Counted from the stretch's first letter, positions 23,601 through 43,005 are shown. The stretch: 64,000 nucleotides of DNA from a virus (IMGVR_UViG_3300033153_013649:1-64000), one strand, 5' to 3'. The notes: generated by a model not told the origin, from the letters alone. Made by a program: numbers and translations.

Positions 23601-26045
23601 GTAATTAATCTTAACGAAGGGGATATTCTTAAAACTGAAAATGGTTCTGGAAAAATTAAAACCGGTGGAATTTCTACAAGTAATAAAGAAGTAGTTTTAA
23701 CTTTAGATAATCCTATTAATGTTGAAAATAGAATTGATCATCAAGATGATTTTACTCTTTGTGATAACGATGGAACAAATATTAATTTTGAATTTACCAA
23801 AGATGAAGGAAGTACAAGCTCGAGTGGAACAAATGAAATATCTATCTCATCTAATGATAGCGCTCAAGTAGTTGCTTTGGCAATAAAAGATGCAATAAAT
23901 CTAGCAATGAATGGAAGTAATCCTGCATTTACAGCTGCAATAAACGGATCGTATGATTATCAAGTAGATGTAACTAGAATAACTGTTGGAAATTCAAATT
24001 TATCTAATGATTCAAATATCACTGATAATGGAAGTGGATATCCAGATCAATTTGATGTTCCGAATTGGACAGATAACGGAGCAAGTTCATCTGCAACATT
24101 AACTATTACTGCTTGTGCTGCTGATGATATTATGGAACCTGGACGATTCATAACTTCTTCTGCGGGAGGATCAGGTATAGTTATTCTCGGAGGTTCAACT
24201 GATACAGAAATAACAGTTAGATATGATGGAACAGATTTTGCTTCTACTGAAACAGTAGTATTAGGAAATTATTATTTTGGAACTGGATATTCAACTATTA
24301 CCGCAACGGAATTTTTAGGAATTGAAGTATTTCTAGAAGATATAGTAGGTACCTTTGCAAAAGGAACAAAAAATATTCATAAAGTTTCTGCAGCAACGGA
24401 TGATTATTCTCCTGTATATAAATTAAGTGAATATGAAAACGTTTCAGATTTCGAAACTAATTATATAATCGAAGAAACAGGAAACGAAGAAAATTTACCT
24501 TTATTTATAAATAAACTTAATTTCGAAGCGGCAGGAAATCTAGACGCTAATCCTCAAATTGATACTATAGCAAATCTTGGATATAAAGTAGTATTTAATA
24601 CAACTCAAAATTTAGATTCAGATAATATTAGTTTGAAAGTAACTTACGAAGATAATTCTTCAACAGAAACAGAATATACTTTTATAACTGATCAAAATGA
24701 AAATCTCGAACAAAAATTAATATTAAGTAATCATCTCTATAGAGCATACGATGAACCGGGAAAGGTTCAAATCGGAGATGTAGTTGCTCAATTAAAGGCC
24801 GATGGAACTAGTACTCAAACCGGAATAGTTTCAAAAGTTGAAATAGATCCAGATACAAATATAATGTCTGTATACGTTAGATTTGCAAAGGGAACATTTA
24901 GAACTCAAGACCCTAATACTGTTTCTTTTCTGAAAGTATTACCTCAAGACGGTTCTGTTTATTCTGATGCAGCTTATGATTTTATAACAAAATTAGCTGT
25001 TCCAGACGCATCTGATTTTGCAGTTGGAAGTACAAATAATATTTCAGCTAAAAATGGAGCAACTGGTTCAGTATTTTATATTGATTCTAGTCCTACCGGA
25101 TCAAGTACAGATCGAGATTATATATACGTAACTTATACGGGAACTCATTTTACAATAGACACAACTAATAATAACAACCGAATTGATAATCAAGGATCGT
25201 ACGCATCAGCTTCTTATGATACAACAATTGAAGAAATATACGGAGATACTTCTGCAGATGGAGGAAATGAAAAATATTGGAATGCCAGGGCAGAGATAAG
25301 AAAGATTGAATATACCTCTTCTCCAACTGATTTGAATTATTATATAGCTGAATATGAAAGAGTTAATTTATATCTCCAAAGAGGGGACGCTTCAAGTTAT
25401 TCTGTAGGAGATACAATTTCTCAAGGGGTTGGTTCTGATCCAGATATGACAGGAACAGTTATTTATGTAAAAAAATATGATATTGATTCTAGTCAAGAAG
25501 AATTATTTGATTATGTAACAGTAAGATATGATTTAAATACTTCAAGTATGTGGACAACAGGATCTTTAGATACAGGAGGAACAGTAATTCACGTTGGAAT
25601 TGAAAGACCAGAATATATTGCTCGAGTAAATCTTGTATCAGGAGACGTTGAAATAAGAAGAACTAAATTTACTGAAAATACTCGAAGAGCATATATTGCT
25701 TCAATAGGTTCTGATTATATAGAAATTAATACTACAGATGGATCAGATCCAATTACTTCTTTTAAAACTCCAGGAAGTATAGAAGAACCATTATATATTT
25801 GGAATAATTCAGCTTATCAATGGGAAAAATGGGAATATTCAACATTAAACACGGGTCAAAACAGATTTGAAAATAGTATAACAACAATTCCTTCGGGCGT
25901 AACTGCTGGAATGGAAGTATTTCAAGATACAGATCATTATATAAATAGAATTGAATTTGATTTTAAAAATAAAATTGATAGATTAAAACTCGGAAATAGA
26001 TCATTGTTTTATAGTAATTTAGATTTAATAAAGGAACTTAATTAA
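20604..26045 (+). CDS. gp6: baseplate wedge protein with very large C-terminal extension (1813 aa)
   Basis: LDYD, FDFEGS, NE.Y.STA.LR, GYVP, Y.TTDG..SNG, QNRAIT..DY and GGE motifs within the first ~490 aa. Confidence 0.9.
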   Translation: MSSNDFQGYNYTNLDYDTLYDTIVDFFKNDESSPFRTENGFDFEGSNIRELMRILTYVTHLSVFHCSIALNEMYFSTARLRKNLIKQVKAYGYVPKRKRSSRKYLTIYNNSDTIVSIPSFEEFKAETSTKGTKKFYTLDSYDIPPKSSTTILTYQSNNGPQVQNFTLEFDKGKVVPIEIELDNLSDDYFKVETKEGGVIIPWTEYQNLDSLQNQQTVLEQSLLSENKIFFLDESEKGYTLSFSETGIGDIPAPDDEQIITVRYMTTDGTESNGISTDEFDFSDPSKYFDVNGQSKLRILSNTEITDAASIDSMKLSSQGANKESISEIRENVIAQYNSQNRAITDYDYTKLAKTSPLIGATGDVKAYGGEKHSGGIRLGKVFVLGKPGIEGKYYLTASEKEEFLNYISKYKITGIDPVIQHPHYINVIAKYNYIFKHFVNGQEEISAELNNLILDFFKSSFGKVIYIPELIELLNKNENIESAFIKTDFKIIFDKLEQVIGTFKKIPMEYGKASGFLNSDGSFWTGNVFGEAGDYTSEPSGGYNYGTVEFINTSEDYIIVKIANGTIDNTTFEEFEKGDSYLTTRKSIVDLIYQELPNEREVYVTDTQGFERGRNVSSFDGNNLIQGRTEFVRRTSQGIKYVWLTLDSLVYQKLILSPGDNSITGTNTFLKVGDWIRTPGTTGQITKMDIQSFKIFVEYRGNKFVEDDPIAWIQSSVISWTDAANYIALRNVGKIKTVETESYLIKTSKVSGGAGGDQNFFINKNIEPQNEWQFNDINTSYDYSDFANDIAFINGVNGYTEIDVVYETNTGSPGALEVADIVEFEIDNPISDSNKIKAYVMAVDATTITFRYNHLDSVNYLTPYVLEVDDKFSEDTYDSGNCWKITAISDIRKMNQIRVTDSVYGIQIGDDVCAKNDKTSIPDGKSQYMTAEVIDISGLNIRLDSSAIMTDWRDYDVPSNKGVKQIHKGTYWEDINVTTVTYQSKRYSNIAIEGLRLNNVINLNEGDILKTENGSGKIKTGGISTSNKEVVLTLDNPINVENRIDHQDDFTLCDNDGTNINFEFTKDEGSTSSSGTNEISISSNDSAQVVALAIKDAINLAMNGSNPAFTAAINGSYDYQVDVTRITVGNSNLSNDSNITDNGSGYPDQFDVPNWTDNGASSSATLTITACAADDIMEPGRFITSSAGGSGIVILGGSTDTEITVRYDGTDFASTETVVLGNYYFGTGYSTITATEFLGIEVFLEDIVGTFAKGTKNIHKVSAATDDYSPVYKLSEYENVSDFETNYIIEETGNEENLPLFINKLNFEAAGNLDANPQIDTIANLGYKVVFNTTQNLDSDNISLKVTYEDNSSTETEYTFITDQNENLEQKLILSNHLYRAYDEPGKVQIGDVVAQLKADGTSTQTGIVSKVEIDPDTNIMSVYVRFAKGTFRTQDPNTVSFLKVLPQDGSVYSDAAYDFITKLAVPDASDFAVGSTNNISAKNGATGSVFYIDSSPTGSSTDRDYIYVTYTGTHFTIDTTNNNNRIDNQGSYASASYDTTIEEIYGDTSADGGNEKYWNARAEIRKIEYTSSPTDLNYYIAEYERVNLYLQRGDASSYSVGDTISQGVGSDPDMTGTVIYVKKYDIDSSQEELFDYVTVRYDLNTSSMWTTGSLDTGGTVIHVGIERPEYIARVNLVSGDVEIRRTKFTENTRRAYIASIGSDYIEINTTDGSDPITSFKTPGSIEEPLYIWNNSAYQWEKWEYSTLNTGQNRFENSITTIPSGVTAGMEVFQDTDHYINRIEFDFKNKIDRLKLGNRSLFYSNLDLIKELN

Positions 26046-29000
26046 TGCCTATTAATAATCTAAATGAGCCCCCGGTAGAAGGAATCGATCCTGTATTTAA
26101 TCAAAACTCGAAGATCCCTGTTGCTGGAGAAGAAATTATTTCTTCTTATACTTTAGTAACTACTCCATCTGAAAATCAAAAATTTACTATTCCGAATTCG
26201 ATTCCATTTAGTGTAAATGTTTTAAACGTTGAAAAATGGCTAAATAGATGGGTTCGTTATATAAATTGGTATATTTTAGATTCGAATGATGATATTATAT
26301 ATAGCGCTCGTTCCGAAGATTATATGATTCTGAATACAAATATATCAGGAAACAGAAATCCTGGAACTGGCTCTTTACCAAATGCTACTTTTTTAATTGA
26401 TACATTACTTCTTCCGGATGGAACAACACTAACAAGTGATTCAACTTATAGATTACATTTATCAGCAACAACTTTTAAATTTTCTTCGGATGAATTTCCT
26501 CCAGAAAACGAAAGTATTACTGGAATTCCTTTACCTCAAGAAAGAACTGCTAATAGATCAGATCCGATTGAAGATATAACAATAGTATTCCCTTGGAATT
26601 ATCAAAATATTCCTTTTAGTATTAATAATCCATCTCCTCCTTCTTCGGTCACTGATCCGCCAGAGATTCAATCTGTTACAATACAAGACATTCAAACTGA
26701 TTCTATTACAGTAAGAGTTACATGTAATATCAAAGGTTTATTAGATTATGAAATAAACGAAACCGGTACTTTTGAAGGAGATATTGTAAACGAAGGCATA
26801 GATATAGACAAAAGAATCCCTCAAACTGTTCATGATGTAATATTTGATAATTTAGATCCGAATACCCTTTATTATTTTAGATTTCAATTAGTTAGTGAAG
26901 AAGGAGATGAATACGGAGCATGGTCAACTACATATAACGAAACAACTTTAGCTCCAACTGTTGTTGTTCAATCAAGAGGGACTATTTCTAAAAAAGGTGT
27001 TCACCGAGGAACTATTTCTTGGACTACAGATAAAATTGCTTCTGGATATATTGAATATCAAAAAGCTTCTACATATCTTCAATCAGGATGGACTGGAGCA
27101 GAAATAGCTCAAGATACAAATAGATCTATCTCTAAATCAATAACCTTAACTGGATTATTAGCAGGCACCTATTATTATATTCGTCAAAAATCAAAAGGAT
27201 TCGATGGATCTCCATGGTCTAGTTGGTATACAACTGGTTTCTGGACTTATGACACAGATATTGATATTATAACAAAACCAGATATAAATGGAAGTAGTAT
27301 TGATTTTTCAAGTGGATATTCTTTTGAAGTTCAAGGGGTTAGAGAACTTCATCTTCCTTCTAATGTTATAAAAATTAATTGGAAAATTAAATTTGATTCT
27401 AGAACATCAGAAGAAAACGGAGAAAGACCTCCAGCAGACGAAATTAAAAATCTTGATCCGATAATTATAAAAAGTACAATAGTTCCTCAAGAAGGGGATG
27501 ACCCAAATTCAAAAGATAAAAACGGAGAAGAAGAAGATATTTTTGTCTCTCCTAAATTTGACGATTCTTGGATTGAAACGGAATCAGATATAGAAGGTAG
27601 TTATTTCCTTGAAGTTGAAGGAATACTAGCTAATGGATCAAGTAGATCTCTTGGAATTAGAAGTTTTATTCCTAAAGTTTCTTTAGGTCCTCCTCCAAAT
27701 GTAGCATTTACAACTCCAACTATATCAGAAGTATTATCGATTACTCCAACGTTTGTTCTTTCTAATTGGAATACAGTAACAAATCTTGATCGAGTAAGAT
27801 TTAGAATAGAACTTAATGGAGAATATGTTTATGATTATACAGATACAGATGTAGCAGATGGAAGTTTTGATTTTGATACTATTACAAATAAACCCTTATT
27901 AAAAGGAAAAACATATACAGTTTGGGCAAAATACGGTAATAAAAACAACGATGGTACTTTTAATGCTTGGAGTCAAACTTGGAGGGGAGTTGCTTTTAAA
28001 ACCCCAGGGGTTACTCCAGAAAAACCGTCGTTATTAGAACCAACTATCTCAGATCGTCCAGATCCAAGAAAAGAAATAAAATTGAAATTTTCACCGTATA
28101 CTGGATCTGATGGGTTATCTTATGCCGAAATTAGAATAAGTAAAGTTCCTGATTCTGAAACTCCTACTTTTGATGATCTTACTTATTATTATTCATCTGA
28201 TAATATTCATTATTTAAATTCCGATGGAAATGAAATAGTAAGAGTTCCAGAAGGAGTTGATGTTGAACCTCGAGAAGGAGAAAAATTAGCAATAGAAGAA
28301 GCAACTACATATTATATAATATGTACTTATTATGGAAACAACGGGAAATCTATAACGTCTGATGAATTTTATTTTACAACTGATACTGTTTTTACTCCAC
28401 CCCCTCCACCAACGGATTTAAGTCCAAGTATTCAAGTTGAAGTATTAGATGAAAATCATAACATTTTAATTACCCCTGTTGATTTTCCAGATTTATCTCC
28501 TTATATAGGAACAGATCCAGAAATATTTCCATTAGAAGGGGAAACTTATAAAGATTATGTATATGCAGTAGAATATAGAATCACTCCGGGTACAGCAAAT
28601 AATCCAGATGGAGTTAAACAATATTTAACCCCTAATAGCAATTATATATTTGAACATAAAGATCCTCTTTTAATTTCAGGTACTTTGATTGGATTATCTT
28701 CTTCTACAACTTATAAAGTTTGGGTAAGATATTTCAGAACTAATCCAAATCTTGCAGAAGAAGGAGAAGAAAGTGCCGTATCGGATTGGATGTTTGAATC
28801 ATTTACAACCCTGGCTGTAACTTGGAATTCCCAGCCGATTAATATAATTCCAATTAATAATGCTGCTGATCTTAATGGAAATAGCGTAAATTTACAAGTT
28901 TCAGTACCTAGATTGCCTTTTAGGGAGCTCGAAAAAATAACTAATATGGAATGGAGAATTAATACTGATGCGGATTTTCAAGGAACAGAAATAGCTGATA

Positions 29001-32000
29001 TTTCAATCTTAGGAACTCAAAAAGGTAGTATTTATTCTCTAACAGTAGATCCTAGTAATTGGACTACAAATTTCTCCCCTGACACAGAATATTATTGGCA
29101 AGTAAGATCTTATTATTCTGGATCATGGAGTAATTGGAGTAATGTTACAAGCTTTAGAACTTCAAATACAGCAAATCCTGGAAAACCAAGTATAATCGAT
29201 TCAGATAGTTGGATTAATGGATCTACGAATAAAGCAGAAATTTGGGTCCAAACTAGTGACTTCATTGAACCCCCTTGTAAACCCGGAGATTCTCATACTA
29301 AAACTATATATCGAATTCGTGTTTATCCGGGTGGACCAGATTTAGTAAAAGAAGAAGGAACTTCGGGTCAAGATCTTATAGAATTAACTCTCGGAACAAA
29401 CGGAGAATTAATAGGAAATAAATCTTATTACGTAAGTGTTGAACACGTTGGAAGTCTTTCTGGAACAATGTCTGATTGGGTTATAATTAAAACTCCAGGA
29501 GGAGCTCCTATAACTCCAAGAATTATAAAACCAGCAAGGGGTTCTATAAGACAAGAATTCAAAATTAATTCTCTTATTTTAGGTGGTACAAAGTATATTG
29601 GAACAACAGAAGATATGACTGAATCAGATTGGCAAATTGCATCTGATTCATCTTTTACAAATATTATATGGGAAAAATTAGGATATACTGAAGCTGATCC
29701 ATATAAACCTCAAATTACAGTTGATCAAGAACTTGACCCAGGTACCGTATATTATGTAAGAGTAAAATATAGAAACGACGTAGCTGAATCTGATTGGTCG
29801 TCGACCGTAAGAGATTCTTATTTTACAACAAAAGGAAATAAACCGGATACTCCTTCTATAACAGATCCTTCTGAAAATTCTACAGAAAAGGGATGGCTAC
29901 CCGGAAATGGAGATAATACATTACAAGTTGTTGGGAGTCTTTATTCCGGAGAGGGAAGTTTATATGGATATCACGTACAAATTTCTACAAACTCTTCTTT
30001 TACCGGTATAGTATATGACTCAATGTCTATTGGAATAAATCCTACAGAACCATTAACATTTGGATTACGTGAAACTGATTATGAGCTTTTTCCTTATTAT
30101 AAAACAATTTGGAGCAATAATTTATTAGAAACAAATTATGAGCTTGATCAAGATACTTGGTATTACATAAGATTAAAATATTACAATGATGAAGAATGCT
30201 GGTCGGATTGGTCTTTAAGTTCTCATAAATTTAAAACTGGATACGGAGTTCCAAAACAACCAACTATTACTTCTCCGTCAAACGGACAGAGATCTGTTTC
30301 TTTAACCCCAACTTTTACAAGTTCAACTTATAACGGAGCAGCAGCAAGTAGTCATACTGCTTCAAGCTGGTATTTATATAAAATGCCTAATATGCAATTA
30401 GTATGGTCTTCTGTGGGAGATTCTTCTAATAAAACTTCTATTACCCCAGGAACTCATGGAACATGGGAAGTAGGATCTGATGAAGAAAGTTTAGGAAAAT
30501 TATATCAAGCTAGATCATATATTCTTCGTGTTAAATATTCAAACGAAAAAGGATATTCAGATCTTTCTCCTAAAACGGCTTTTGTAGCAATTCCTCAAAA
30601 ACCTCTAAGACCGAATATCTTACCTTCAGATAACCAATCTTTTCATACGAGTATTTGGATGTCTGAAGATAATCATAATATTAATACTGCTTCGTTCAAT
30701 TCTTCCCCGTGGCCAAGCGGTTCAGGTTCAGATATTTATGGAGATCATTTAAAATCTCAATGGGAAATATATGCAGGGGGTGCTACTGATTTAACAGATC
30801 CAGGTGAAGATGAAAATCCTATCTCTAGAATATCTTCTGATCATGATGTTAATGCTTTTTTAAAAACTTGGAATGTTGGAGCAGCGGGATTACTTACTTA
30901 TCATAAAAAATATCGTATAAGGGTTCGTTATTATAATGATTGGGGATGGTCAAGCTGGTCTAAATTATTTGAATTCAGAACATTACCGGATGTTCCAAAT
31001 AAGCCTTCTATATTAGCTCCAACTAATTTATTAACTCAAACAATTGAATCATCTGATGATATTATTAGAGAAGACTGGGAAGATCCATTAACATTAATGT
31101 CAACACCTTTTGATCCAAAAGAAACTGGTACAGAAGAATCTGAACCTAACGGAGAAGAAGAGGTATATGGAACTCCTCCTGGGCCTCCTAGAAATCATAT
31201 TAAAACTCAATGGCAAATTTCTTCTGATGAAGATTTTACAAAAATAACTTATGACGTTGTACAAAATACAAATCCTGGAAATCCTTCGATTGGAATTACT
31301 TACGATCAATTTCCGGTAAAATCGATTGTTGTACCAGGATCATCGGGAAACAGAAGAATATGGGTAGAAGACGAAATAGATGAAAACGAAGAAAAGGCTA
31401 AAGAAGAATTACCAGAAAATGAAAATATTTTAGAAGATGGAGATAAAACAAGAGGACATTATGAAACTATAGATCTTCCTGCTAAAAATCCTTATCTTCC
31501 AAGTAATAAGGTTTTAAGACTTAGAGTAAGACATAAAAATATAGCTGGATGGTCTGATTGGTCAGATACTTCTTATTTTGTTACTATGATTGATTATCCA
31601 GAAACCCCTTTTATCTTACGTCCGACTCCAAATGGCGGAAATAAAATGAAAAGGGAAAACGAAGTATATAAAATGTCTATTTATGAAGGAGAAATTCCAA
31701 TATTTTCTGATGATATTATAGAAAATATAGAGGATCTTGGAGTATTAATTCATAAAGAAGAAGATGATTTATCTCCAAAAGAAGATAGACCTTTTAAGAG
31801 AAGAAAAAAAACTCATATTGAATCTGATTGGGAGATCTGGTCGTTACTTGTAAATCCAACTCTTCCAGAAGCAGAATGGAATTGGGAATTAGTATGGAGA
31901 ATAGCTAAAACTAAATCAATAGTTTTAGATTCTGGTAGTACTTACACTAATGTTTTAGATTCAGACCTCGAAAAAGAGGTCCAAATAAATAATGAAATCG

Positions 32001-34531
32001 TTGGTCAATTATTAGGATACAATAATACAACAAATACTTGGGATGTTTGGATCTATCAAGGGAAAACAATTTCTGTATCTGATAATTTATCTGTTGTAGA
32101 CGGAATCGGAGAAGGAACAGTATCTTCAATTTCTGGGGTAGTTTATAATATTAGAAGAACTGGAATAGAAGACAATCTTACCAGAGTAATTATTAATGAA
32201 ACTTATGGAAATTTCAAAGGACAGTTAGCTGATTCTACAAAATTAGATTATCTTAAAAAATATCGTTTTAGAGTAAGACAACAAAACGACAAAGGATGGT
32301 CGCTTTGGTCAAATTCTATAACCCCTGATCAGGGAACTAATTTTTATGAATTAACAACTACGTTTGCTCCCCCAATTAGACCAGTTCCCTTAAGTCCTGG
32401 AATAAGCAATAGAGATGAACAAAGTCAACTCCCTGATGTTGATGAAAATAATATATCCTTACCAGAATGGTATAAAGATTTATATGGAAATACTATAAAG
32501 GTTAGAAGAATTAATCCTAATCCAATATTAATTGGATCCAAATATCAAGGTGATGGAGAATCTAAATTATTATTTGCTCATTTTCAAATAGCATCTGATA
32601 ATTTATTTGAGAATCTTGCTTGGGAAGGACAAAGGGTATATGGCAAAGATAAAAATCTTTATCAAATAGCAGTTAATACTGCTAATGGAACATTTTTTAC
32701 TTCTACTCTTGATGATCAAGAACGATTGAATTATGAAGGAATATATTATTGGAGGGTTCGCCATTATAATGAAGCTGGATGGTCTGATTGGTCAGAAAGC
32801 GCTAAATTTCAAGTTTCAAAATACAGAAAAGAAATAAAATTTACTGCCAATATAAGTAAAGAACTTACTCATTTGATAGATAGATTTGTTCATCCAAGAA
32901 TACAGAATAAAAGCGAAACTTTTACAGCTTTTATTAATACTTGGCTTAAATTTTTGGATCAATATTCTCATCAATTTATTTTCAATATTTCTGATTTCCA
33001 TAATTTAGGTAAATTTTCTAGAATGACAGAAAATTATTTTGATTGGGATGAATCTATAAAGGATGCTAATTTTAGAAATTATATGTCTGAAGAAGCTCTC
33101 GAAAAATTCAAAACTATATTCGATGGAGAAATCAATCCTGAAATTCTTAGATATTTTCGAGAACTTAATTCTAGAAAAGGTTCAGGATTTTCAATTCAAT
33201 TACTTCTTAAACTTTTAGGATTTGATGTTATAGTTGAACCTATATCTCAATTAACATATAAAATAACTTCTACTGAAGGCAAATTTAGCTCAAAAGAAAA
33301 TATTGAAAAGGTAAATCAAGTAATAGATCTTTTTCATCCTTCGGGAATGAGAAGAATAATGTTTAATGATTTACTATTACCTATTTTTAAATTGAGACAT
33401 AAATTCTATGAAGCTCATCTTACTTATTTTCATTATCAATTAAATGCTGGGTGGGATTATGTAATAATTGAAGTTGATGATATTATTTCTCCTGACTCGA
33501 ATTTTCTTGAAATAGGAGATACAGTAACAGCTCAAAACGGAGCAACAGGTACAGTAATTAATGTTGATTCTCAAAGAAGACCAATTATACAATATGCAGC
33601 TGGAAGTAAATTATTTTCTGCTTTTAAAGAAACTACCTTAACTCTTGGCGGAGCATTTACTGGAGCTTCAAGAGGAGATTATGTAGTGCAAGAAACATCT
33701 GGAGCAATCGGTCAAATTATATATGGAGAAAGTACAACAAGCCTCAAAGTAAGATATGTTGGAACAGATTTCAACGGATCAGATAATATCAGTTTGAGCA
33801 AGATTTATAATGAGAATGTTGAATATAAAACAGTTTCAGATTCTTCGATTTCTGTAAATGCTAAAATCGATCAAGGTTCTTCTTATTCTTCTGGGCATGC
33901 AGAAATAATTGCCATAAGAGGAGGGGGAACGGTTGGAGCAATCGGATTCAAGAATCAAACTGCACCTGGAGCATCAGAATATCAATTTTCTGTAGTACCA
34001 AAATTCTTCTGGAATAAGAAAACTTATGAATTATATGATCTTCATAAAGATATTAATGAAGGATGGCATGGATTTAGTACTCCTGAAGATCTTGCTCATG
34101 TTCCAATTGAAGATTTTGAAAATCTTTGGCCAGAAGATAAAAAAATGATGGTAACTCTTGTTTTAGATGATGATATTTCCGGATTATCTGAAGGAGAAAC
34201 AGTAGTTCATGCTAATATACAATCCTTAGATGATCCAAACGATTTTGATTTTGAAAAAACCGGATATGTAAATAAAATTTATACAGAAAACGGCGAGTCT
34301 TTAATAGATGTATATTATCCAAATAATAATTCTTATAATTATCATGATTGGACTGTCGCTTATGAAGATGAAGAAACATCTACTAAGATTCCTAATATTC
34401 ATGAAGGAACAACGTTTGATGCAGAAGATCCAAATATTCAGTCTATTTTAGAAGTAAGATTTCCTCATGAAAGGATAGATAAAAAGGTTTCTTTTCACAT
34501 TCAAAGACCAAGTTACAACTTACAAGAGTAA
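26045..34531 (+). CDS. giant baseplate protein: fibronectin type III repeats plus gp7-like wedge domain (2828 aa)
   Basis: Repeated YY.RVRY....WS.WS units; late domain with KGS..SIQLLLKLLG and HPSG typical of gp7-like wedge proteins; located between gp6 and gp8. Confidence 0.75.
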   Translation: MPINNLNEPPVEGIDPVFNQNSKIPVAGEEIISSYTLVTTPSENQKFTIPNSIPFSVNVLNVEKWLNRWVRYINWYILDSNDDIIYSARSEDYMILNTNISGNRNPGTGSLPNATFLIDTLLLPDGTTLTSDSTYRLHLSATTFKFSSDEFPPENESITGIPLPQERTANRSDPIEDITIVFPWNYQNIPFSINNPSPPSSVTDPPEIQSVTIQDIQTDSITVRVTCNIKGLLDYEINETGTFEGDIVNEGIDIDKRIPQTVHDVIFDNLDPNTLYYFRFQLVSEEGDEYGAWSTTYNETTLAPTVVVQSRGTISKKGVHRGTISWTTDKIASGYIEYQKASTYLQSGWTGAEIAQDTNRSISKSITLTGLLAGTYYYIRQKSKGFDGSPWSSWYTTGFWTYDTDIDIITKPDINGSSIDFSSGYSFEVQGVRELHLPSNVIKINWKIKFDSRTSEENGERPPADEIKNLDPIIIKSTIVPQEGDDPNSKDKNGEEEDIFVSPKFDDSWIETESDIEGSYFLEVEGILANGSSRSLGIRSFIPKVSLGPPPNVAFTTPTISEVLSITPTFVLSNWNTVTNLDRVRFRIELNGEYVYDYTDTDVADGSFDFDTITNKPLLKGKTYTVWAKYGNKNNDGTFNAWSQTWRGVAFKTPGVTPEKPSLLEPTISDRPDPRKEIKLKFSPYTGSDGLSYAEIRISKVPDSETPTFDDLTYYYSSDNIHYLNSDGNEIVRVPEGVDVEPREGEKLAIEEATTYYIICTYYGNNGKSITSDEFYFTTDTVFTPPPPPTDLSPSIQVEVLDENHNILITPVDFPDLSPYIGTDPEIFPLEGETYKDYVYAVEYRITPGTANNPDGVKQYLTPNSNYIFEHKDPLLISGTLIGLSSSTTYKVWVRYFRTNPNLAEEGEESAVSDWMFESFTTLAVTWNSQPINIIPINNAADLNGNSVNLQVSVPRLPFRELEKITNMEWRINTDADFQGTEIADISILGTQKGSIYSLTVDPSNWTTNFSPDTEYYWQVRSYYSGSWSNWSNVTSFRTSNTANPGKPSIIDSDSWINGSTNKAEIWVQTSDFIEPPCKPGDSHTKTIYRIRVYPGGPDLVKEEGTSGQDLIELTLGTNGELIGNKSYYVSVEHVGSLSGTMSDWVIIKTPGGAPITPRIIKPARGSIRQEFKINSLILGGTKYIGTTEDMTESDWQIASDSSFTNIIWEKLGYTEADPYKPQITVDQELDPGTVYYVRVKYRNDVAESDWSSTVRDSYFTTKGNKPDTPSITDPSENSTEKGWLPGNGDNTLQVVGSLYSGEGSLYGYHVQISTNSSFTGIVYDSMSIGINPTEPLTFGLRETDYELFPYYKTIWSNNLLETNYELDQDTWYYIRLKYYNDEECWSDWSLSSHKFKTGYGVPKQPTITSPSNGQRSVSLTPTFTSSTYNGAAASSHTASSWYLYKMPNMQLVWSSVGDSSNKTSITPGTHGTWEVGSDEESLGKLYQARSYILRVKYSNEKGYSDLSPKTAFVAIPQKPLRPNILPSDNQSFHTSIWMSEDNHNINTASFNSSPWPSGSGSDIYGDHLKSQWEIYAGGATDLTDPGEDENPISRISSDHDVNAFLKTWNVGAAGLLTYHKKYRIRVRYYNDWGWSSWSKLFEFRTLPDVPNKPSILAPTNLLTQTIESSDDIIREDWEDPLTLMSTPFDPKETGTEESEPNGEEEVYGTPPGPPRNHIKTQWQISSDEDFTKITYDVVQNTNPGNPSIGITYDQFPVKSIVVPGSSGNRRIWVEDEIDENEEKAKEELPENENILEDGDKTRGHYETIDLPAKNPYLPSNKVLRLRVRHKNIAGWSDWSDTSYFVTMIDYPETPFILRPTPNGGNKMKRENEVYKMSIYEGEIPIFSDDIIENIEDLGVLIHKEEDDLSPKEDRPFKRRKKTHIESDWEIWSLLVNPTLPEAEWNWELVWRIAKTKSIVLDSGSTYTNVLDSDLEKEVQINNEIVGQLLGYNNTTNTWDVWIYQGKTISVSDNLSVVDGIGEGTVSSISGVVYNIRRTGIEDNLTRVIINETYGNFKGQLADSTKLDYLKKYRFRVRQQNDKGWSLWSNSITPDQGTNFYELTTTFAPPIRPVPLSPGISNRDEQSQLPDVDENNISLPEWYKDLYGNTIKVRRINPNPILIGSKYQGDGESKLLFAHFQIASDNLFENLAWEGQRVYGKDKNLYQIAVNTANGTFFTSTLDDQERLNYEGIYYWRVRHYNEAGWSDWSESAKFQVSKYRKEIKFTANISKELTHLIDRFVHPRIQNKSETFTAFINTWLKFLDQYSHQFIFNISDFHNLGKFSRMTENYFDWDESIKDANFRNYMSEEALEKFKTIFDGEINPEILRYFRELNSRKGSGFSIQLLLKLLGFDVIVEPISQLTYKITSTEGKFSSKENIEKVNQVIDLFHPSGMRRIMFNDLLLPIFKLRHKFYEAHLTYFHYQLNAGWDYVIIEVDDIISPDSNFLEIGDTVTAQNGATGTVINVDSQRRPIIQYAAGSKLFSAFKETTLTLGGAFTGASRGDYVVQETSGAIGQIIYGESTTSLKVRYVGTDFNGSDNISLSKIYNENVEYKTVSDSSISVNAKIDQGSSYSSGHAEIIAIRGGGTVGAIGFKNQTAPGASEYQFSVVPKFFWNKKTYELYDLHKDINEGWHGFSTPEDLAHVPIEDFENLWPEDKKMMVTLVLDDDISGLSEGETVVHANIQSLDDPNDFDFEKTGYVNKIYTENGESLIDVYYPNNNSYNYHDWTVAYEDEETSTKIPNIHEGTTFDAEDPNIQSILEVRFPHERIDKKVSFHIQRPSYNLQE

Positions 34532-35499: not shown

Positions 35500-38196
35500 A
35501 TGGGAACTTATTCAATTCAAATAACCGATTCGTTTAGTGATTGGGTTACAGCTTATAATAATTTAACAGATCAAGTAGATACTATTAGTTCAGATCTTAG
35601 CTGGAGACCTGCTGTTAGATGTCAAGATAGTGTAAATACGTCTAAACCAACAAATAATCCTACAATAGACGGAGTTACAATTGCACTTAGTGATAGAGTA
35701 TTATTTACTAATTTATCTGGAGGGGAATCAGGGGATAATAATAAAGTTTGGTTAGCAACAAGTAGTTTATCTTCTATTGTTTGGACTTTAGAAACCGACG
35801 GACAAGCTGGAAATGGTGATCCAACTGACGGCGATACTATAGCAATAATCGAAGGAACTGTTTATGGAGATCACACTTTCAAATATACTGGTTCAGAGTG
35901 GGTAGATATTGGTACCTTACTTCCCGGAGCAACTACTTCAAGTCCTGGTGTTGTACAATTATACGATGGTACAGATTCTACTTCCGTAACTAAAGCTCCG
36001 ACTGCTAATATTTTAAAATCCGTAAACGATTCTCTTACTTCCCATACAGAAGCAAGTTCAGGGGTACACGGACTCACAGGAACAGTTGTAGGTACATCTG
36101 ATTCTCAGACATTAACAAATAAAACTTTAACTACCCCTACTATCGGAGATTTTACAAATGCGGGACATACCCACGCAGATACAGCAAATGGCGGAGAAAT
36201 AGATCATGTAAATTTGTTAAATAAAGGATCTAATACTCATTCTGATATTGATACTCATATATCAGGATCAAGTGTACATGGAGTAGCAGGAGTAGTAGTA
36301 GGAACTACTAGCTCTCAGACATTAACAAATAAAACTTTAACTACCCCTACTATCGGAGATTTTACAAATGCGGGACATGATCATTCTAATGCTGCTGGGG
36401 GAGGAACAATATCTTATAATGACTTAGATAATGTTCCAAGTACTTTTACCCCTTCTTCTCATGGAAATTCAGCACATACAAGTACATTTATTACTTCTAG
36501 TAGTGTAACTTTCGAAACTTTAGATGGAAATAATGATGTCGGTACAGGTTCAAGTCAAGTTGCACAAGGAAATCATTCGCATAGTCAATTACATAATAGA
36601 TCTCATTTAATGACTTCAACTTCAGATCATTCAGCAACTAATTGGAGGATGTTTTATTCTGATGGATCGGGAGAGATTCAAGAATTATCATTTGGAACTA
36701 ACGGTTATCGTTTAACTTCTAACGGCCCTAGTGCTGCTCCTACTTGGGAATCTGTTGCAGGTGGACATACTCAATTACATGCAATGACTTCAACTTCAGA
36801 TCATTCAGCAAATAATTGGAAATTATTTTATTCTGATGGATCCGGGGACGTCCAAGAATTATCACTTGGAGCTAATAATACCTTTTTAAAAGGGGAAGGA
36901 ACTACTACTTCTCCAAGTTTTGGAGCTATAACTGCAGCTGAATTACCTTCTCATGCACATACCTCATCTTCAACAGGAGGAGATTTTGCATGGGCTGATA
37001 TAACTGGATTCGGTACAGAACCAGGAGCAGTCAGTAGTTCTACATCTGGACAAGCAGGAACTGCTACTACAGTATCTCGTTCAGACCATAATCATGATTT
37101 AGGAACACATGCTCATACTGGAGCTACTAATGGAGGACAATTAGTTGCTACTACAGCAATAACTGCTGGTAATTGGAAAATTTTATATACAAATGATAGT
37201 GGAGCTATAAATGAACTTGCGTTAGGGGCTAATAATACCGTTTTAAAAGGTGAAGGAACTTCTGTCGCGCCAAGCTTCGGACAAATAGATTTTTCAGAAA
37301 TTTCAGGCAGTGTTCCCTCTCATTATCATTCGGGGGGTGATATTACTTCTGGAAATCTTGGATATACTTATATGCCTACCGGTACAGGGACTTGGAATTT
37401 AGGATCCGGACAAACAACTATTCAATCAACAACTTCTGCTCCTGTATTAATACATAGAAATGATACTTCTGCTGATTCTGTTGTCGGAGGATTAATTATT
37501 AGAAAATCAAGATCCAATGGGGTTCATACAGCTGGAGCCGGAGTAGCTTTAAGCTTTTCTTTAGAATCAGGATCTGAAGGTTTTTATAGATCAGCAGGAA
37601 AAATTAGTGCTGTATCTACAAATATATCAAGCACAAGTGTAACTTCTAAACTTGTATTTTCGGTTAATGATACTGCTACAGAAATAGATGTAGTTGAATT
37701 TACTAGAGTTGGAGATATTAATCTTCTAAAAAATCCTGCTACAATCCATTTTGAAGGAGAGGGAATAATTAATAATGGATCTTCAAGTAATCTAACTTTA
37801 GATCCCGGTGGAGGAAGGGTTACTCTTGCCGTTGGAGTAGACCTCTATATAAGTAATGCCGGATCTTTAATGTTTGAAGGAATAAATTATCTAAAAAAAG
37901 GATCGGGAAACGAAATCGAAGTTTATACTAATAGTGCATTAGCAGCAACAATAACAGGAACAGGAATTGATCTACCCTCTAGTGACGATCATATTAAATC
38001 ATCCGGAGGAAACTTAAAACTTATAGCGAACACCCAAACTTTAACTATTAATTCAACAGGATCTATAGGATTACCAGTACTTTCAAGTGCTCCGGGTACC
38101 CCTTCAGAAGGGGACATGTATTATGATTCAACAGACGAAACAGTTTATGTAAGAGGATCTTCTTCTTGGATTAATTTAGGGGGTGAACCAGCATAA
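35500..38196 (+). CDS. tail fibre / baseplate fibre protein
   Basis: Gly/Ser/Thr-rich; DSFSDW N-terminus, IDGVT..DRVL domain, GVVQL, many HxH motifs, C-terminal P.EGDMYYD motif. Confidence 0.8.
36103..36378 (+). repeat. 66-bp exact direct repeat in the fibre gene (36103-36168 and 36313-36378)
   Basis: Both copies encode [22 protein letters not shown]; 210-bp period. Confidence 0.9.
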
Positions 38197-38255
38197 GCAT
38201 AATCTTAAAAGGTAAATTTAATAAATATATAAAAAACAATAAAGGATAATTTTAA

Positions 38256-38963
38256 ATGAATACAAGAAGATTTTATATAACGGTTGATAGACAAAATGGA
38301 TTTGAACAGTATGCAGATATTAATAATCCAAGAACTACAGCTGTAAAATTCAGAAAAGATCAAATATATTATCTAGCAAAAGAATATGTAAATAGGTTAC
38401 AGGGATATCCTCTTGAAGTTTTTGGATCCGAAAATTTTAATTTATTTAATGATAGTATAAGTATTACAGCATTACATGAATATCCCCCTCTTACACCTCC
38501 TGCGAATCAAACATGGCATATAATTTCTAATAAAGACGAAGAAGTATATAACAATACAGTAGAGATTACTTTAGATGCAAATACTCAAAACATTGAAATA
38601 GGGGACTGGGTTACAGCTGAAAACGGAGCAACTGGAAAAGTAAAAGCCGTTTCAATTTTAAATTTTACAATTGCTTATAATAGCATTGATTTTTCAGAAT
38701 CAGCTGGATCAAATAAATTAACTAAAGGAAGAGTATATGATTCAGGAACTTATGATACAATTACAGATGAAGACGGAACCCCCCCTGTTAAAACTAGATT
38801 TTCAGAATTTGCTGCTGAATTAGCATATTATGATGGAAACGATACAGATAATCCTTGGAGATATTTTCATCCGTTTAGAGGATTTAAAATTGACTGGAAT
38901 TCAAATACTTATATTTGGGGACATGATCTTTCTGATGACTTTAGATGGAGAAAAGAAGTATAA
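38256..38963 (+). CDS. virion/fibre-associated protein, DUF2793-like with inserted beta module
   Basis: PP..P...WHI...LAYYDG...WRYFHP..G pattern interrupted by an IGDWVTAENGATG module. Confidence 0.45.
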   Translation: MNTRRFYITVDRQNGFEQYADINNPRTTAVKFRKDQIYYLAKEYVNRLQGYPLEVFGSENFNLFNDSISITALHEYPPLTPPANQTWHIISNKDEEVYNNTVEITLDANTQNIEIGDWVTAENGATGKVKAVSILNFTIAYNSIDFSESAGSNKLTKGRVYDSGTYDTITDEDGTPPVKTRFSEFAAELAYYDGNDTDNPWRYFHPFRGFKIDWNSNTYIWGHDLSDDFRWRKEV

Positions 38964-38965
38964 AA

Positions 38966-40000
38966 ATGTGTAATATTACGGATAAACTTTCAGATTTAGA
39001 GCAACAATTTGATTTTGCTTCGTTGATTAATCTAATTACGATTGAATTTATAAACACTACTAACATAAGAGATATAAACGACAAAATCAATTTTGCTTTG
39101 GAATTAATAGGAAATCATACTGAAGTTGACCATACTTATATTTTTAAAGTTGAAGACGAAAACGAATATATTCAAAATTTAGATTTATATGAATGGAGAG
39201 CTCGAGGTATCGAATCTTTTACAAAAAAATTACAATATATTTCTAAAGAAGAATGGAAAACCCTCTGGGGGAAAAGAGTTATAAGAAATCCAATATCTAT
39301 AGATGACATAGACGAAGAACTTTCAAAAAGAAAAAAAAATAAAGCAATATGTTCTCTTTTTAAAAAACAAGGAATAAAATCGTTGCTTATAATTCCTTTG
39401 TTTATTAATAATAAATTTTTTGGTTTTTTTAGATTAGATTCTTATAGAAAAAAAAGAATTTGGACAAAAAAAGAAATATCTAGATTATCTGTTATTGCTA
39501 AAATATTTACTGAAGCATTAACTAAAAGGATGAAAATAAAAATAACTGAACAAAAATATAAAAAAGCGAAAGAATTCAATGATTCTATTATCAAAGCGTT
39601 TCCTGACGATATGTTTATTTTAGATAAACACAAAAAGATACTTTGGTCAAACAAAAAAACTCTTTTAGAAAATGATAAAAATAATTTTTTTGAAGGAAGA
39701 TTTGAATTAATAAGAGCAAATTATAATCTAACAACAACAGAAAATAAACAGATTTGTCCTATAACCTTTGTTTTAAAAACAAAAAAAACCTTAGAACTTG
39801 AAATAAAAGCAAAAGATAAACATTTCTGGTATGCTATAACCCCTTGTAATATGAACGAAGAGGTTAAAACCGTATTAGTTATAAGGAGAGACTTTACTAA
39901 TAGAAAAGAATTTTTGGAATTAGAAAAAATGATTTCTCTAATAGAAGAAATAACTAGCACACGAAACAAACTCAATATAACTTTAAGAGAGATAAATTAA
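38966..40000 (+). CDS. GAF-PAS sensory protein with no output domain
   Basis: GAF: INFALELIG..VDHTYIF..YEW.A.GI..QGIKSLLIIPL..GFFRLD..W...EI..L; PAS/PAC: SIIKAFPDDMFILD..ILWSN..RDFTNRK; start at 38945 or 38966. Confidence 0.85.
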   Translation: MCNITDKLSDLEQQFDFASLINLITIEFINTTNIRDINDKINFALELIGNHTEVDHTYIFKVEDENEYIQNLDLYEWRARGIESFTKKLQYISKEEWKTLWGKRVIRNPISIDDIDEELSKRKKNKAICSLFKKQGIKSLLIIPLFINNKFFGFFRLDSYRKKRIWTKKEISRLSVIAKIFTEALTKRMKIKITEQKYKKAKEFNDSIIKAFPDDMFILDKHKKILWSNKKTLLENDKNNFFEGRFELIRANYNLTTTENKQICPITFVLKTKKTLELEIKAKDKHFWYAITPCNMNEEVKTVLVIRRDFTNRKEFLELEKMISLIEEITSTRNKLNITLREIN

Positions 40001-40440
40001 TGAAAAACATTACTACTATTCCAGAAGAAGCCCCTCAAAAATATAAAGAACTTATTGAATCTCTTCTTAAAAGTTATAGTGATAACACCGGGGTACTTCA
40101 ATTCATTTTAGAAATGAATAATACTATTAAAGAAATTCTTATCGGAAAACAAGAAAATCTTGATAAGGGAGAACCTGTTGGAGGAATGAAAGCAGATATT
40201 TTAACAATTAAAAAAGCTGTTAAACTTTCCCCTGCAGCAGAAGAAGATAGAATATATACGTATGAAGATCTAGTAAAAGAAGTAAACAAAAATTTAAAAG
40301 ATTTAATTACAGAAAAAATTTCTGAAATTCTCAAAGAATTAAAAAGAAAAACCCCCTGGAAGGACAAAATGACTTTATTAAAAGATATAATAATATCTAT
40401 AGGAATTATTATATCTATAATATTTAATTGGATTAAATAA
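40000..40440 (+). CDS. helical protein with a C-terminal transmembrane segment (holin candidate)
   Basis: Ends DIIISIGIIISIIFNWIK; TAATG-coupled on both sides. Confidence 0.45.
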   Translation: MKNITTIPEEAPQKYKELIESLLKSYSDNTGVLQFILEMNNTIKEILIGKQENLDKGEPVGGMKADILTIKKAVKLSPAAEEDRIYTYEDLVKEVNKNLKDLITEKISEILKELKRKTPWKDKMTLLKDIIISIGIIISIIFNWIK

Positions 40441-41249
40441 TGAATTTTTTTAAAAACTTAAAAAATCTTGCTATTACCTCATTGATAATTATAATAACAA
40501 TAACAATTTGGCAATGGAATAATTCAAATAATAAAAAAGATGAACAATTATTCGAAGCTAACTTAAAAACATCCCAGATCTTAGCAGAAAACGATACTTT
40601 AAAATTAAATAACAATAAATTATTCGAACAGCTTATTTTCATTGAAAATGATAAAAATCGTTTAGACGAAGATTTAGGTAAACTAAAGGGGAAAATTGAA
40701 GGGCAAATTCGACAAATTACTAAATTAAAATTTGAAGTATTAAAAGCTAATGGTACAATTAGTGGATTAATAATATCAAGAGATTCTCTCAGAGAATTTT
40801 ATGATCGTCAAGGTAACTTATTAACAATGTTTAGAGAAACTTTTGATATTTCTGATTCAACAGAATTTTATAATTTAATACAAAAACTAACTATTACTGG
40901 AACTAATAATGAAATAGATCATATAGATAATGAATATAGTCTTAAAATGAAGCCTTTTGATTTAGTCTTAGTTACTTCAAAAATTGATAAATATATATAT
41001 AAAATAACTGCATCAGCTCATGATTTTTATAAATTAAGAGACGCAAGTACGATAATTACAATTGAGAATCCTTATGAACCAACTTCTTTCTGGAAAAGAT
41101 GGAATATCGGATTAGGAATTGGAATTTCAGGATTTAATCAAAACGCGTATGGAATCGGGGGCCTTAAATATCAAAAACATTATTTCGGTATAACATACGA
41201 CGGAAAAAACAAAGGAATACAATATATGTATTTTTTGAAAAAGGAATAA
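40440..41249 (+). CDS. membrane-anchored coiled-coil protein (spanin candidate)
   Basis: Basic N-terminus, TM LAITSLIIIITITIW, coiled coil, Gly/aromatic beta-strands at the C-terminus. Confidence 0.45.
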   Translation: MNFFKNLKNLAITSLIIIITITIWQWNNSNNKKDEQLFEANLKTSQILAENDTLKLNNNKLFEQLIFIENDKNRLDEDLGKLKGKIEGQIRQITKLKFEVLKANGTISGLIISRDSLREFYDRQGNLLTMFRETFDISDSTEFYNLIQKLTITGTNNEIDHIDNEYSLKMKPFDLVLVTSKIDKYIYKITASAHDFYKLRDASTIITIENPYEPTSFWKRWNIGLGIGISGFNQNAYGIGGLKYQKHYFGITYDGKNKGIQYMYFLKKE

Positions 41250-41256
41250 CAAAAAA

Positions 41257-41832
41257 ATGAAATCATTTAAAGAAACATTAAGTATTTTAGAAAATACTGA
41301 TAATTCTGATATTCTTTGGGAATGGACATCAAAAGCTAAAGATGTTTGGCTAAAAAAGAACAAGGATGCTTCATTTACAACAACTAAGGTAAGGGATACT
41401 TTTCTAATTTCTTGTGGGCCTCTTGAATATTATTATGATGGTATATGGAAAGGAAAACACGGAGCTTTTAAATTAGCAGCAATCGATGCTACTAAACCGA
41501 AAGATCTGCCAAAGGATTTTAATACCTTCTTTTCAATGCTTCAAAAAAAATATAATGATATACGAAGAGAAATGGAAAAGGGAACAGATTTAGCATTTAA
41601 TAAAATCTCTAAATATATAAAGAAAATGGAAAATAATGAAGATTTAAGAATAATTAAAGAAAAGGGACCGAGGGAATATCCTCAGGTAGTAGTATTTCTA
41701 AATAATAAATCAATATATGCAACAAATGGAACAAATTATATACAAACATTAGGAAGAGGCATTCCTAGTTTTAAAGAATTTTCTGATATTATAAAGATAA
41801 AAAGATTTAAAAGTGAATTCGGAAGAGTATAG
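41257..41832 (+). CDS. putative internal head protein
   Basis: Starts MKSFKETLSILE; AAGGA RBS. Confidence 0.45.
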   Translation: MKSFKETLSILENTDNSDILWEWTSKAKDVWLKKNKDASFTTTKVRDTFLISCGPLEYYYDGIWKGKHGAFKLAAIDATKPKDLPKDFNTFFSMLQKKYNDIRREMEKGTDLAFNKISKYIKKMENNEDLRIIKEKGPREYPQVVVFLNNKSIYATNGTNYIQTLGRGIPSFKEFSDIIKIKRFKSEFGRV

Positions 41833-41843
41833 AAAGAAAATTT

Positions 41844-42470
41844 ATGGAAAAATTTACCTCTAATTTTTTTGGAAATCCCTTAAGCTCAGTTTTTCATGAA
41901 TTAAATCTTTATGATTATAGCAAAATTGATGAAAAAAAGCCACCTCTATTTTATACCCCAGATGACCCCGAATATGAAATTTCTTATGCTTTTCATAAAG
42001 AAAATAATCCGGATTATATAAGTGAAAATTTTGATCTTAAAGAATTTTCGGTTTCAGCAGATTTTCCAGAATTAGCTAAAAAACAAAAGTTTACTCCAGA
42101 ACAAGAAGCTACAATAAGAAAATTAGTTATCGAATTAATTCAACCTATTAGAACTTTTTTTAATGAATGGGTATCAGTCCTTTCTGGACTAAGGCAAGAT
42201 GACTTAAATACAGCAGTAAAAGGTTCAAAAACATCAGATCATAGACTTGGGGCAGCTGCCGATATTACTTCTCTTAAAATACAATATGACCCAGAATCAA
42301 CTGCTTGGGATTTATGGAAAAATCTAGGATTGAAAGACAATATGCATTTAAAGCAATTAATATTTTACAAAAAGAAAAGATTTTTACATGTTTCAATTAA
42401 TAATCCTAATAGTAGAACCAGACATGAATTAATAGATTGGGATGGAAATAGAAAGGTAGTTGCAACATAA
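41844..42470 (+). CDS. peptidase M15A family endolysin (Zn peptidoglycan peptidase)
   Basis: SENF.LKEF, SGLR...N.AV.G...SDH..G.AADI and FLHVS motifs. Confidence 0.88.
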   Translation: MEKFTSNFFGNPLSSVFHELNLYDYSKIDEKKPPLFYTPDDPEYEISYAFHKENNPDYISENFDLKEFSVSADFPELAKKQKFTPEQEATIRKLVIELIQPIRTFFNEWVSVLSGLRQDDLNTAVKGSKTSDHRLGAAADITSLKIQYDPESTAWDLWKNLGLKDNMHLKQLIFYKKKRFLHVSINNPNSRTRHELIDWDGNRKVVAT

Positions 42471-42471
42471 A

Positions 42472-42966
42472 ATGCCAGCAACAATAATTGTTCCAAATAT
42501 AAATAGTATTTTCGAAATAGCTTTCGAAAAATATCCAGAATTAGCCAATCAAATTATTGAAGTAGCTATGCCGGGAATTAGCATAGATCCTACCGATTTT
42601 AGAGTAAAAGAATTTAGAATCCGACAATTACCAACTCAAAATGAACCAACGAAAGAAGAAATGACAATTACCTTTAATGCTGATGAAAATTTTGATAACT
42701 ATTATACCATTTATACATGGATACGCTCAGGTACGCGTGGGGGTATGGGAATACATGCAAGAGATCTAGATTCGGATATTATTCTTACATTAACAGATTT
42801 AAATAAACGTCCTATAATGAAGCTTGTTTATAAACATTGTTTCCCAACTAATCTTTCTGAAATGCCTTTAAATACTCAAGACGAAGGAAACACCCCGTTA
42901 AACTTTACAGCAACCTTTGTAGTAAATGATATTTTAATAACTAGATTAGACCCCAGTTTAAAATAA
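42472..42966 (+). CDS. tail completion / tube terminator protein, gp3-like (tube fold)
   Basis: MPGI, ITFNADENFDNY..IY.WI and CFPTNLS motifs; ATG 42472 preferred over TTG 42460. Confidence 0.7.
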   Translation: MPATIIVPNINSIFEIAFEKYPELANQIIEVAMPGISIDPTDFRVKEFRIRQLPTQNEPTKEEMTITFNADENFDNYYTIYTWIRSGTRGGMGIHARDLDSDIILTLTDLNKRPIMKLVYKHCFPTNLSEMPLNTQDEGNTPLNFTATFVVNDILITRLDPSLK

Positions 42967-42975
42967 AAATAATTG

Positions 42976-43005
42976 TTGACAAAGTATAATTAAATTTGGT
43001 ATATT
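42976..43005 (+). promoter_or_regulatory. sigma70-like promoter
   Basis: TTGACA-18-TATATT. Confidence 0.75.

Follow-up and report, generated by a model that had tools for sequence, protein, structure and literature searches.

The window analysed here comprises the first 64,000 nucleotides (IMGVR_UViG_3300033153_013649:1-64000) of a complete 159,837-bp virus genome with direct terminal repeats. At positions 38945-40000 on its + strand lies a gene for a 351-amino-acid protein with a GAF domain, a PAS domain and a short C-terminal helix, and with no recognizable output domain. This sensor is followed by two genes for membrane proteins, p146 and p269, and the arrangement recurs on metagenome contigs from landfill leachate and biogas-plant digestate. 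Gene order, purifying selection and a single phage clade support the view that the sensor is a real phage gene under selection, whose function is linked to its membrane neighbours. We propose, as a plausible but tentative reading, that it acts by contact on these membrane proteins and tunes a late membrane event, probably the timing of lysis. An earlier note, made from the sequence of the window, had described a signal-responsive lysis module at this place; the selected sensor and its tie to membrane proteins are retained here, and the assignments of the holin and the spanin and the link to the M15 peptidase are not.

The GAF-PAS sensor and its membrane neighbours

The features of the sensor and the genes that adjoin it are as follows.

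38945-40000, + strand: output-less GAF-PAS sensor, 351 amino acids (open reading frame (ORF), Pfam GAF match, AlphaFold2 (AF2) model and end-to-end homologue)
38975-39469, + strand: GAF domain, residues ~11-175 (PF01590 above the cut-off; structural match to the GAF domain of a dual-sensor kinase)
39467-39598, + strand: long linker helix, residues 175-218, 44 residues (AF2 secondary structure)
39599-39895, + strand: PAS domain with an invariant Cys pair (C271 in CPI and C301 in TPCN), ending in RRDFTNRK (homologue alignment, AF2 strands)
39896-39994, + strand: C-terminal amphipathic helix, residues 318-350, the sole candidate output element (AF2, pLDDT above 90)
40000-40440, + strand: p146, predicted tail-anchored membrane protein, 146 amino acids, with a transmembrane (TM) segment at residues ~123-145 (40366-40434) and a helical cytoplasmic domain
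40440-41249, + strand: p269, 269 amino acids, with an N-terminal TM segment (~40470-40520), a coiled coil and a beta-rich Gly/aromatic C-terminal domain (secondary structure from a low-confidence model)
38256-38963, + strand: g235, 235 amino acids, after the gene for an 898-amino-acid tail fibre; conserved upstream neighbour of the cassette, with no TM segment

The GAF domain was recognized by PF01590 over residues 51-188 of the sensor (26-28 bits against a cut-off of 22.4 bits). An AF2 model based on a 70-row alignment (pLDDT 89) was linked to GAF domains by Foldseek with a probability of 1.00, and its best structural match was the GAF domain 6oap_A (Z 19.9, root-mean-square deviation 2.4 A over 174 residues). 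No Pfam PAS model was found on the protein itself at E<=0.1. Residues ~203-322 align to stretches called PAS_9 or PAS_4 by Pfam in three homologues (P0028, P0071 and P0062), and the AF2 model contains a five-stranded PAS-type alpha/beta core at residues 222-316 (pLDDT ~90). The protein ends 33 residues past the PAS domain, with one helix only after RRDFTNRK, and the Pfam scan detected no HisKA, HATPase_c, GGDEF, receiver or helix-turn-helix (HTH) domain. In addition, p146, the product of the next gene, contains no histidine. The Pfam scan, the AF2 model and the homologue alignment thus agree with the earlier description of a GAF and PAS protein that ends in a helix with no kinase, GGDEF or HTH domain, and we classify it from its sequence as a soluble GAF-helix-PAS-helix protein, not a sensor histidine kinase. 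An alternative start codon is present at 38966, two bases past the stop codon of the upstream gene.

Two elements of the C-terminal half are maintained. The length and the hydrophobic periodicity of the terminal helix are kept across all phage orthologues, and the Cys pair (CP... and TPCN) is invariant across the phage sensor clade. In lineages B and D, the PAS domain carries two extra Cys and one His (IC..FH...C), whereas the window protein and lineage C have only the pair; the window sensor keeps two of the four PAS cysteines seen in L006:3420-4469 and P0131. The extra Cys and His residues suggest a metal or cluster site in lineages B and D, which may have been lost in the window sensor.

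The stop codon of the sensor gene overlaps the start codon of p146 (TAATG, 39998-40002), and p146 overlaps p269 in the same way (40438-40442), as had been pointed out before; both junctions point to translational coupling. p146 is a small membrane protein with a single hydrophobic segment (residues ~123-145 of 146), a K/R-rich stretch before it and three residues after it. The single C-terminal segment and the preceding basic residues imply that the N-terminal domain is cytoplasmic, which accords with the topology proposed in the earlier note. Among the holin families of Pfam, PHROGs and NCBIfam, none matched p146, and a charged hydrophilic C-terminal tail is absent. The leads given for it by Atlas (XhlA and DUF1515; 0.81) were at chance level and were confirmed neither by Pfam nor by hhalign. 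A complex prediction for the sensor and p146 scored 0.01, with p146 poorly folded in it, and counts neither way on binding.

For p269, an AF2 model from a two-sequence alignment (pLDDT 44), used for secondary structure only, placed a hydrophobic segment at residues ~11-27, a helix up to ~87 and a beta-rich remainder. Pfam and PHROGs scans gave no family match. The Atlas leads for p269 were viral clusters with DUF6549/DUF6808; neither hidden Markov model had a match in the whole genome at E<=10, and a literature search found no paper mentioning DUF6549/DUF6808.

Conservation, selection and origin of the cassette

An exhaustive HMMER search with the sensor yielded 8,989 matches, nearly all of which were large multi-domain kinases or cyclases with GAF(-PAS) as an input module. 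Stand-alone relatives included a 348-amino-acid protein (P0004), the closest end-to-end relative of the sensor (33% identity, E 8e-54); a 163-amino-acid protein (P0120) that consists of the PAS domain and the helix only and is 43% identical to sensor residues 203-350; and two proteins of 274-275 amino acids (P0131 and P0156) in which a different PAS domain replaces the GAF domain. Searches of IMG/VR, INPHARED phages, GTDB genomes and a word-indexed protein collection revealed no further relatives beyond a few metagenome contigs.

Three contigs from landfill leachate well LW4 (L006, L009 and L011) share one gene order: a fibre-like gene, a 431-amino-acid gene, a 129-amino-acid gene with three TM segments (3-TM gene), a GAF-PAS sensor, a p146 homologue (193 amino acids, E 7e-9), a p269 homologue in the same position as in the window (273 amino acids, E 9e-19) and genes on the opposite strand. 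A closer variant (L002) has the same type of order, with a p146 homologue (191 amino acids, E 6e-10) directly after the sensor. On two contigs from biogas-plant digestate (L012 and L005), a g235 homologue is followed by a 3-TM gene, a PAS-PAS sensor and an ORF with a p146-like N-terminus, which is an N-terminal fragment. The 3-TM genes of L012 and L006 are related (E 5e-25), and g235 is homologous to the 158-amino-acid gene that precedes the 3-TM gene on L012 (E 8e-6 and 2e-4); g235 itself gave no match in the Pfam and PHROGs scans. On two further contigs (L003 and L004), the C-terminus of a 3-TM protein is encoded directly before a PAS-only sensor. The conserved unit is therefore g235-like gene, 3-TM gene, sensor, p146 and p269, of which the window phage lacks the 3-TM gene only. 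As a separate observation, the fibre module of one leachate contig is immediately preceded by a gene for a TnpB/Cas12f-like transposase (L009:138-1316).

The 3-TM family (for example, L006:2949-3338 and L012:940-1275) lies directly upstream of every sensor orthologue except that of the window. A GG[AS]N..[ND]D motif is conserved in the final TM segment of its members, which match no known family. Each has a pair of candidate start codons at a distance of five or six codons, with basic residues encoded in between; these paired starts resemble those of lambda S, an analogy that is suggestive only as a sign of a holin. In size and shape, the 3-TM protein of the relatives is like a holin, and it is a better holin candidate than p146.

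Comparison of L002 with L006 gave ratios of nonsynonymous to synonymous substitution rates (dN/dS) of 0.30 (sensor), 0.31 (p146 homologue) and 0.12 (3-TM gene). The PAS domain and helix of five phage sensors were placed in a maximum-likelihood tree together with 11 PAS domains of cellular kinases, namely those that could be aligned over the region. All five phage sensors formed one clade with a long stem (support 100/99), indicating that they share a single origin. The N-terminal input domain varies by lineage (GAF, PAS or none), and the PAS domain, the helix and the membrane neighbours are constant. Such swapping of inputs would be expected of a sensor whose PAS domain and helix form the output surface and whose partners are encoded alongside, and the differing input domains support a real sensing role.

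Neighbouring late genes and other lysis candidates

The window phage has a GC content of ~28% and a T4-like gene layout, with a large terminase, two sheath paralogues, a tube, a baseplate wedge, a 2828-amino-acid ORF and the 898-amino-acid tail fibre; the sensor cassette comes after the fibre, and a tube-like gene and a UvsW helicase gene lie further on. Because the large terminase is only ~38% identical to the terminases of T4-like cyanophages, the window phage, which is uncultured, belongs to the T4 superfamily as a distant member. Scans for sigma-70 promoters, terminators and the T4 late promoter (TATAAATA) gave nothing above chance, and therefore no operon boundaries can be claimed. Two genes follow p269.

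41257-41832, + strand: p191, 191 amino acids, outside the conserved cassette; no family match (Pfam, PHROGs)
41844-42470, + strand: M15 (LAS-type) peptidoglycan peptidase, 208 amino acids, endolysin candidate; its end overlaps a tail-tube-like gene

No counterpart of p191 was found in the cassette of L006 and L009. The 191-amino-acid gene after the sensor in L002 was considered as one and rejected (E 0.5), being the p146 homologue instead. The M15 peptidase was identified by PF08291 (E 1.8e-7, 31.7 bits against a cut-off of 23.2 bits) and phrog_894, annotated as 'endolysin' (E 9e-23), and the metal-binding motifs SDH..G.A.D and LHV are present in its translation; the earlier note had correctly placed such a gene one gene after p269. 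The gene that its end overlaps (42460-42966; phrog_45, E 2e-19) is a second, diverged tail-tube-like gene, the main tail tube gene being located at 16854-17381. Outside the window, the same genome encodes a 312-amino-acid protein (109473-110411; L008:6974-7912) whose N-terminal TM anchor is combined with a lytic transglycosylase domain of the SLT type (E 3.9e-12); it is a second muralytic enzyme and possibly a signal-anchored endolysin.

Several structural genes upstream of the cassette are also of note. The two adjacent tail-sheath paralogues (13131-15095 and 15115-16818; 654 and 567 amino acids) both match phrog_23 at ~1e-78. A 545-amino-acid gene in the slot of T4 gp20, the portal (17477-19114), has a full-length match to PHROGs labelled 'homing endonuclease' (E 4e-126), and this label is probably an artefact. 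Additionally, two giant ORFs lie ahead of the tail-fibre genes, at 20604-26045 (1813 amino acids, with a baseplate-wedge-like N-terminus) and 26045-34531 (2828 amino acids).

A proposed role for the sensor and rival explanations

In the reading that we tentatively favour, the sensor would be a soluble, probably dimeric, cytoplasmic GAF-PAS protein, in which the Cys-bearing PAS domain and the terminal amphipathic helix form the constant part and the N-terminal input is exchangeable. It would act by protein contact, because it has no enzymatic or DNA-binding output. The likeliest partners would be the cytoplasmic helical domain of p146 and, in the relatives, the cytoplasmic tail of the holin-shaped 3-TM protein. 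Through this contact, a late membrane event, most probably the triggering of a holin, would occur earlier or later. The sensor would then exert control like that of an antiholin or a co-holin, in response to a cue inside the cell such as redox state, a metal or a small ligand. The window phage has no 3-TM gene; here, p146 and p269 would work with a holin encoded elsewhere, or be membrane effectors themselves. A wider form of the proposal, that a family of output-less sensors in phages of anoxic habitats binds holin-type proteins directly and sets the moment of lysis by redox, metal or metabolite state, is possible but doubtful.

The position of the cassette is consistent with this proposal. 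It lies at the end of the late tail-fibre block, before a strand switch in the relatives, where T4 has gp37, gp38, holin t and then opposite-strand genes; in the window phage, the M15 hydrolase is encoded one gene downstream of the sensor, p146 and p269. RIII of T4 is a cytoplasmic antiholin that acts on the holin T, which is also controlled by the periplasmic antiholin RI (PMC11413866). The likeness to T, RI and RIII thus includes the late slot, the proposed action of a soluble cytoplasmic protein on a membrane lysis protein and, for p269 and T, an N-terminal TM segment with a large outer domain. However, p269 shows no sequence relation to T (hhalign probability 0.1%; no PF11031 match), RIII lacks a ligand-sensing domain, and T4 perceives its signal in the periplasm rather than the cytoplasm. 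According to the earlier note, the periplasmic domain of T is GAF-like; no such statement was found in the papers searched on lysis inhibition in T4.

A second comparison concerns the two-holin systems XhlA/XhlB of PBSX and gp24.1/gp26 of SPP1, in which XhlA and gp24.1 are C-terminally anchored and kill only together with a canonical holin (PMC6316719). p146 resembles these in its helical cytoplasmic N-terminal part and its one TM segment at the extreme C-terminus, and in the relatives its homologue lies two genes after the holin-shaped 3-TM gene, which is absent from the window phage. Unlike them, p146 is almost twice as long and is not homologous (hhalign probability 0.2% against SPP1 gp24.1; no PF10779 match); moreover, the known pairs come from phages of Gram-positive hosts and have no sensor. 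A phage-borne PAS-type ligand sensor that decides the time of host killing is known from vibriophage VP882 (VqmA-Phage; PMC8284805). VqmA-Phage has an HTH domain and works at the level of transcription, whereas the window sensor has no DNA-binding or enzymatic output and has membrane proteins as neighbours. A full-text literature search found no paper tying PAS or GAF domains to holin cassettes.

The closest likeness in sequence is to the GAF-PAS input regions of bacterial and archaeal histidine kinases and diguanylate cyclases, which are homologous to the sensor (E down to 1e-50), have the same fold and share the DIT-E/D-RK motif that leads into the signalling helix. In contrast, the phage protein ends after this helix, has no DHp/CA, GGDEF or receiver domain, and belongs to a separate phage-borne clade. 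p269, in turn, is similar to the i-spanin of Rz/Rz1 in that an N-terminal TM segment precedes a periplasmic coiled coil (in the low-confidence model). It differs from the spanins Rz/Rz1 and T1 gp11 in having no embedded or adjacent o-spanin gene, no lipobox and no family match, and from i-spanins in its extra 180-residue beta-rich domain; its N-terminal TM segment without a lipobox is the reverse of the arrangement of a unimolecular spanin.

Several observations weigh against a role in lysis timing. None of the cassette proteins matches a holin, antiholin or spanin family in Pfam, PHROGs or NCBIfam, and no homologue of the 3-TM protein was found in the complete genome of the window phage at E<=10. 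p269 has no lipoprotein partner, as no lipobox ORF was detected on the + strand at 38000-43000. About four cassette lineages are known, and because most of their contigs are <2.3 kb, linkage to p269 is seen in two of them only. Conservation of the neighbourhood does not extend to the endolysin: no peptidoglycan hydrolase was found on the 10-kb relative contig. Since the M15 gene overlaps the tail-tube-like gene, the peptidase could be a virion enzyme rather than a lysis enzyme. Distant lysis candidates exist in the same genome, namely the TM-anchored SLT protein at 109.5 kb and several small ORFs with two TM segments. Exclusion genes, in addition, are found in the tail-fibre modules of other phages as well.

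The survey of gene neighbourhoods gives partial support to the interpretation of the earlier note, as the order of sensor, p146 and p269 recurs, a holin-shaped gene adjoins the sensor in relatives and the cassette occupies the position of T4 t; an endolysin did not prove to be a regular neighbour. The most serious competitor, which we nevertheless regard as rather unlikely, is a non-lytic membrane module for superinfection exclusion, receptor masking or envelope remodelling that the sensor switches by host state. It would account for the missing lysis-family matches and endolysin neighbour, for the constant place of the cassette after fibre-like genes together with the g235 family, and for the large extracytoplasmic beta-rich domain that the low-confidence model gives to p269. 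In phage T5, the exclusion lipoprotein Llp is encoded beside the gene of the receptor-binding protein. However, exclusion genes are usually early, whereas the block described here is co-directional with late structural genes; the holin shape and dual-start motif of the 3-TM protein and the T4 t position also speak against this explanation. The complete lysis module at 38945-42470, in which p146 would be a holin that the sensor gates through a coiled-coil contact, p269 a spanin and the M15 peptidase the endolysin, appears improbable. Its genes are co-directional and tightly coupled by TAATG overlaps, the pairing of sensor and p146 is conserved, an M15 hydrolase is close by, and XhlA and gp24.1 provide precedents for C-terminally anchored holin components, although proteins of the XhlA type require a second, canonical holin (PMC6316719). 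The holin assignment is contradicted by the end of p146 three residues past its TM segment, the lack of the charged tail of canonical holins and of any family match, and the better candidate present in relatives. The spanin assignment likewise suffers from the missing family match, lipoprotein partner and lipobox, and the place of the M15 peptidase in a linked module from an adjacency that is not conserved and from the unrelated p191 that intervenes.

The two remaining explanations start from the cellular homologues of the sensor. In the first, the sensor would be a dominant-negative decoy that uses its linker and terminal helices to form heterodimers with a GAF-PAS histidine kinase of the host, whose signalling would thereby be silenced or hijacked. 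The thousands of cellular kinases and cyclases that share the GAF(-PAS) module (among the 8,989 matches) and the end of the sensor exactly at the signalling helix would suit such a decoy. Its identity to any cellular kinase is at most ~30-35%, however, the phage orthologues form their own long-stemmed clade, and the N-terminal domain is swapped or missing while the membrane neighbours stay, which fits a cis-encoded partner better than one host kinase; we consider the decoy quite improbable. That the sensor is a functionless, decaying fragment of a captured host kinase, a possibility raised in the earlier note, would explain the missing output domain. It is contradicted by the intact frame, the confident model with clean domain borders, the same-length orthologue with 33% identity from end to end, the dN/dS of 0.30 and the single, old clade of phage sensors, and is hardly credible.

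When to lyse the host is the main decision in the life history of a lytic phage, and the known regulators respond to superinfection from the periplasm (T4 RI and RIII) or to quorum signals through transcription factors (VqmA of VP882). If the proposed role of the sensor is true, phages would read the internal state of their host post-translationally, through an antiholin that senses an intracellular signal, a layer of control that has not been described for any phage. The cassette is small (three or four genes), and synthetic biology would then also gain a lysis switch that is gated by a ligand or by redox state. If its function is not lytic, it would still represent an uncharacterised, conserved sensor-membrane module in the T4-like phages of digesters and landfill.

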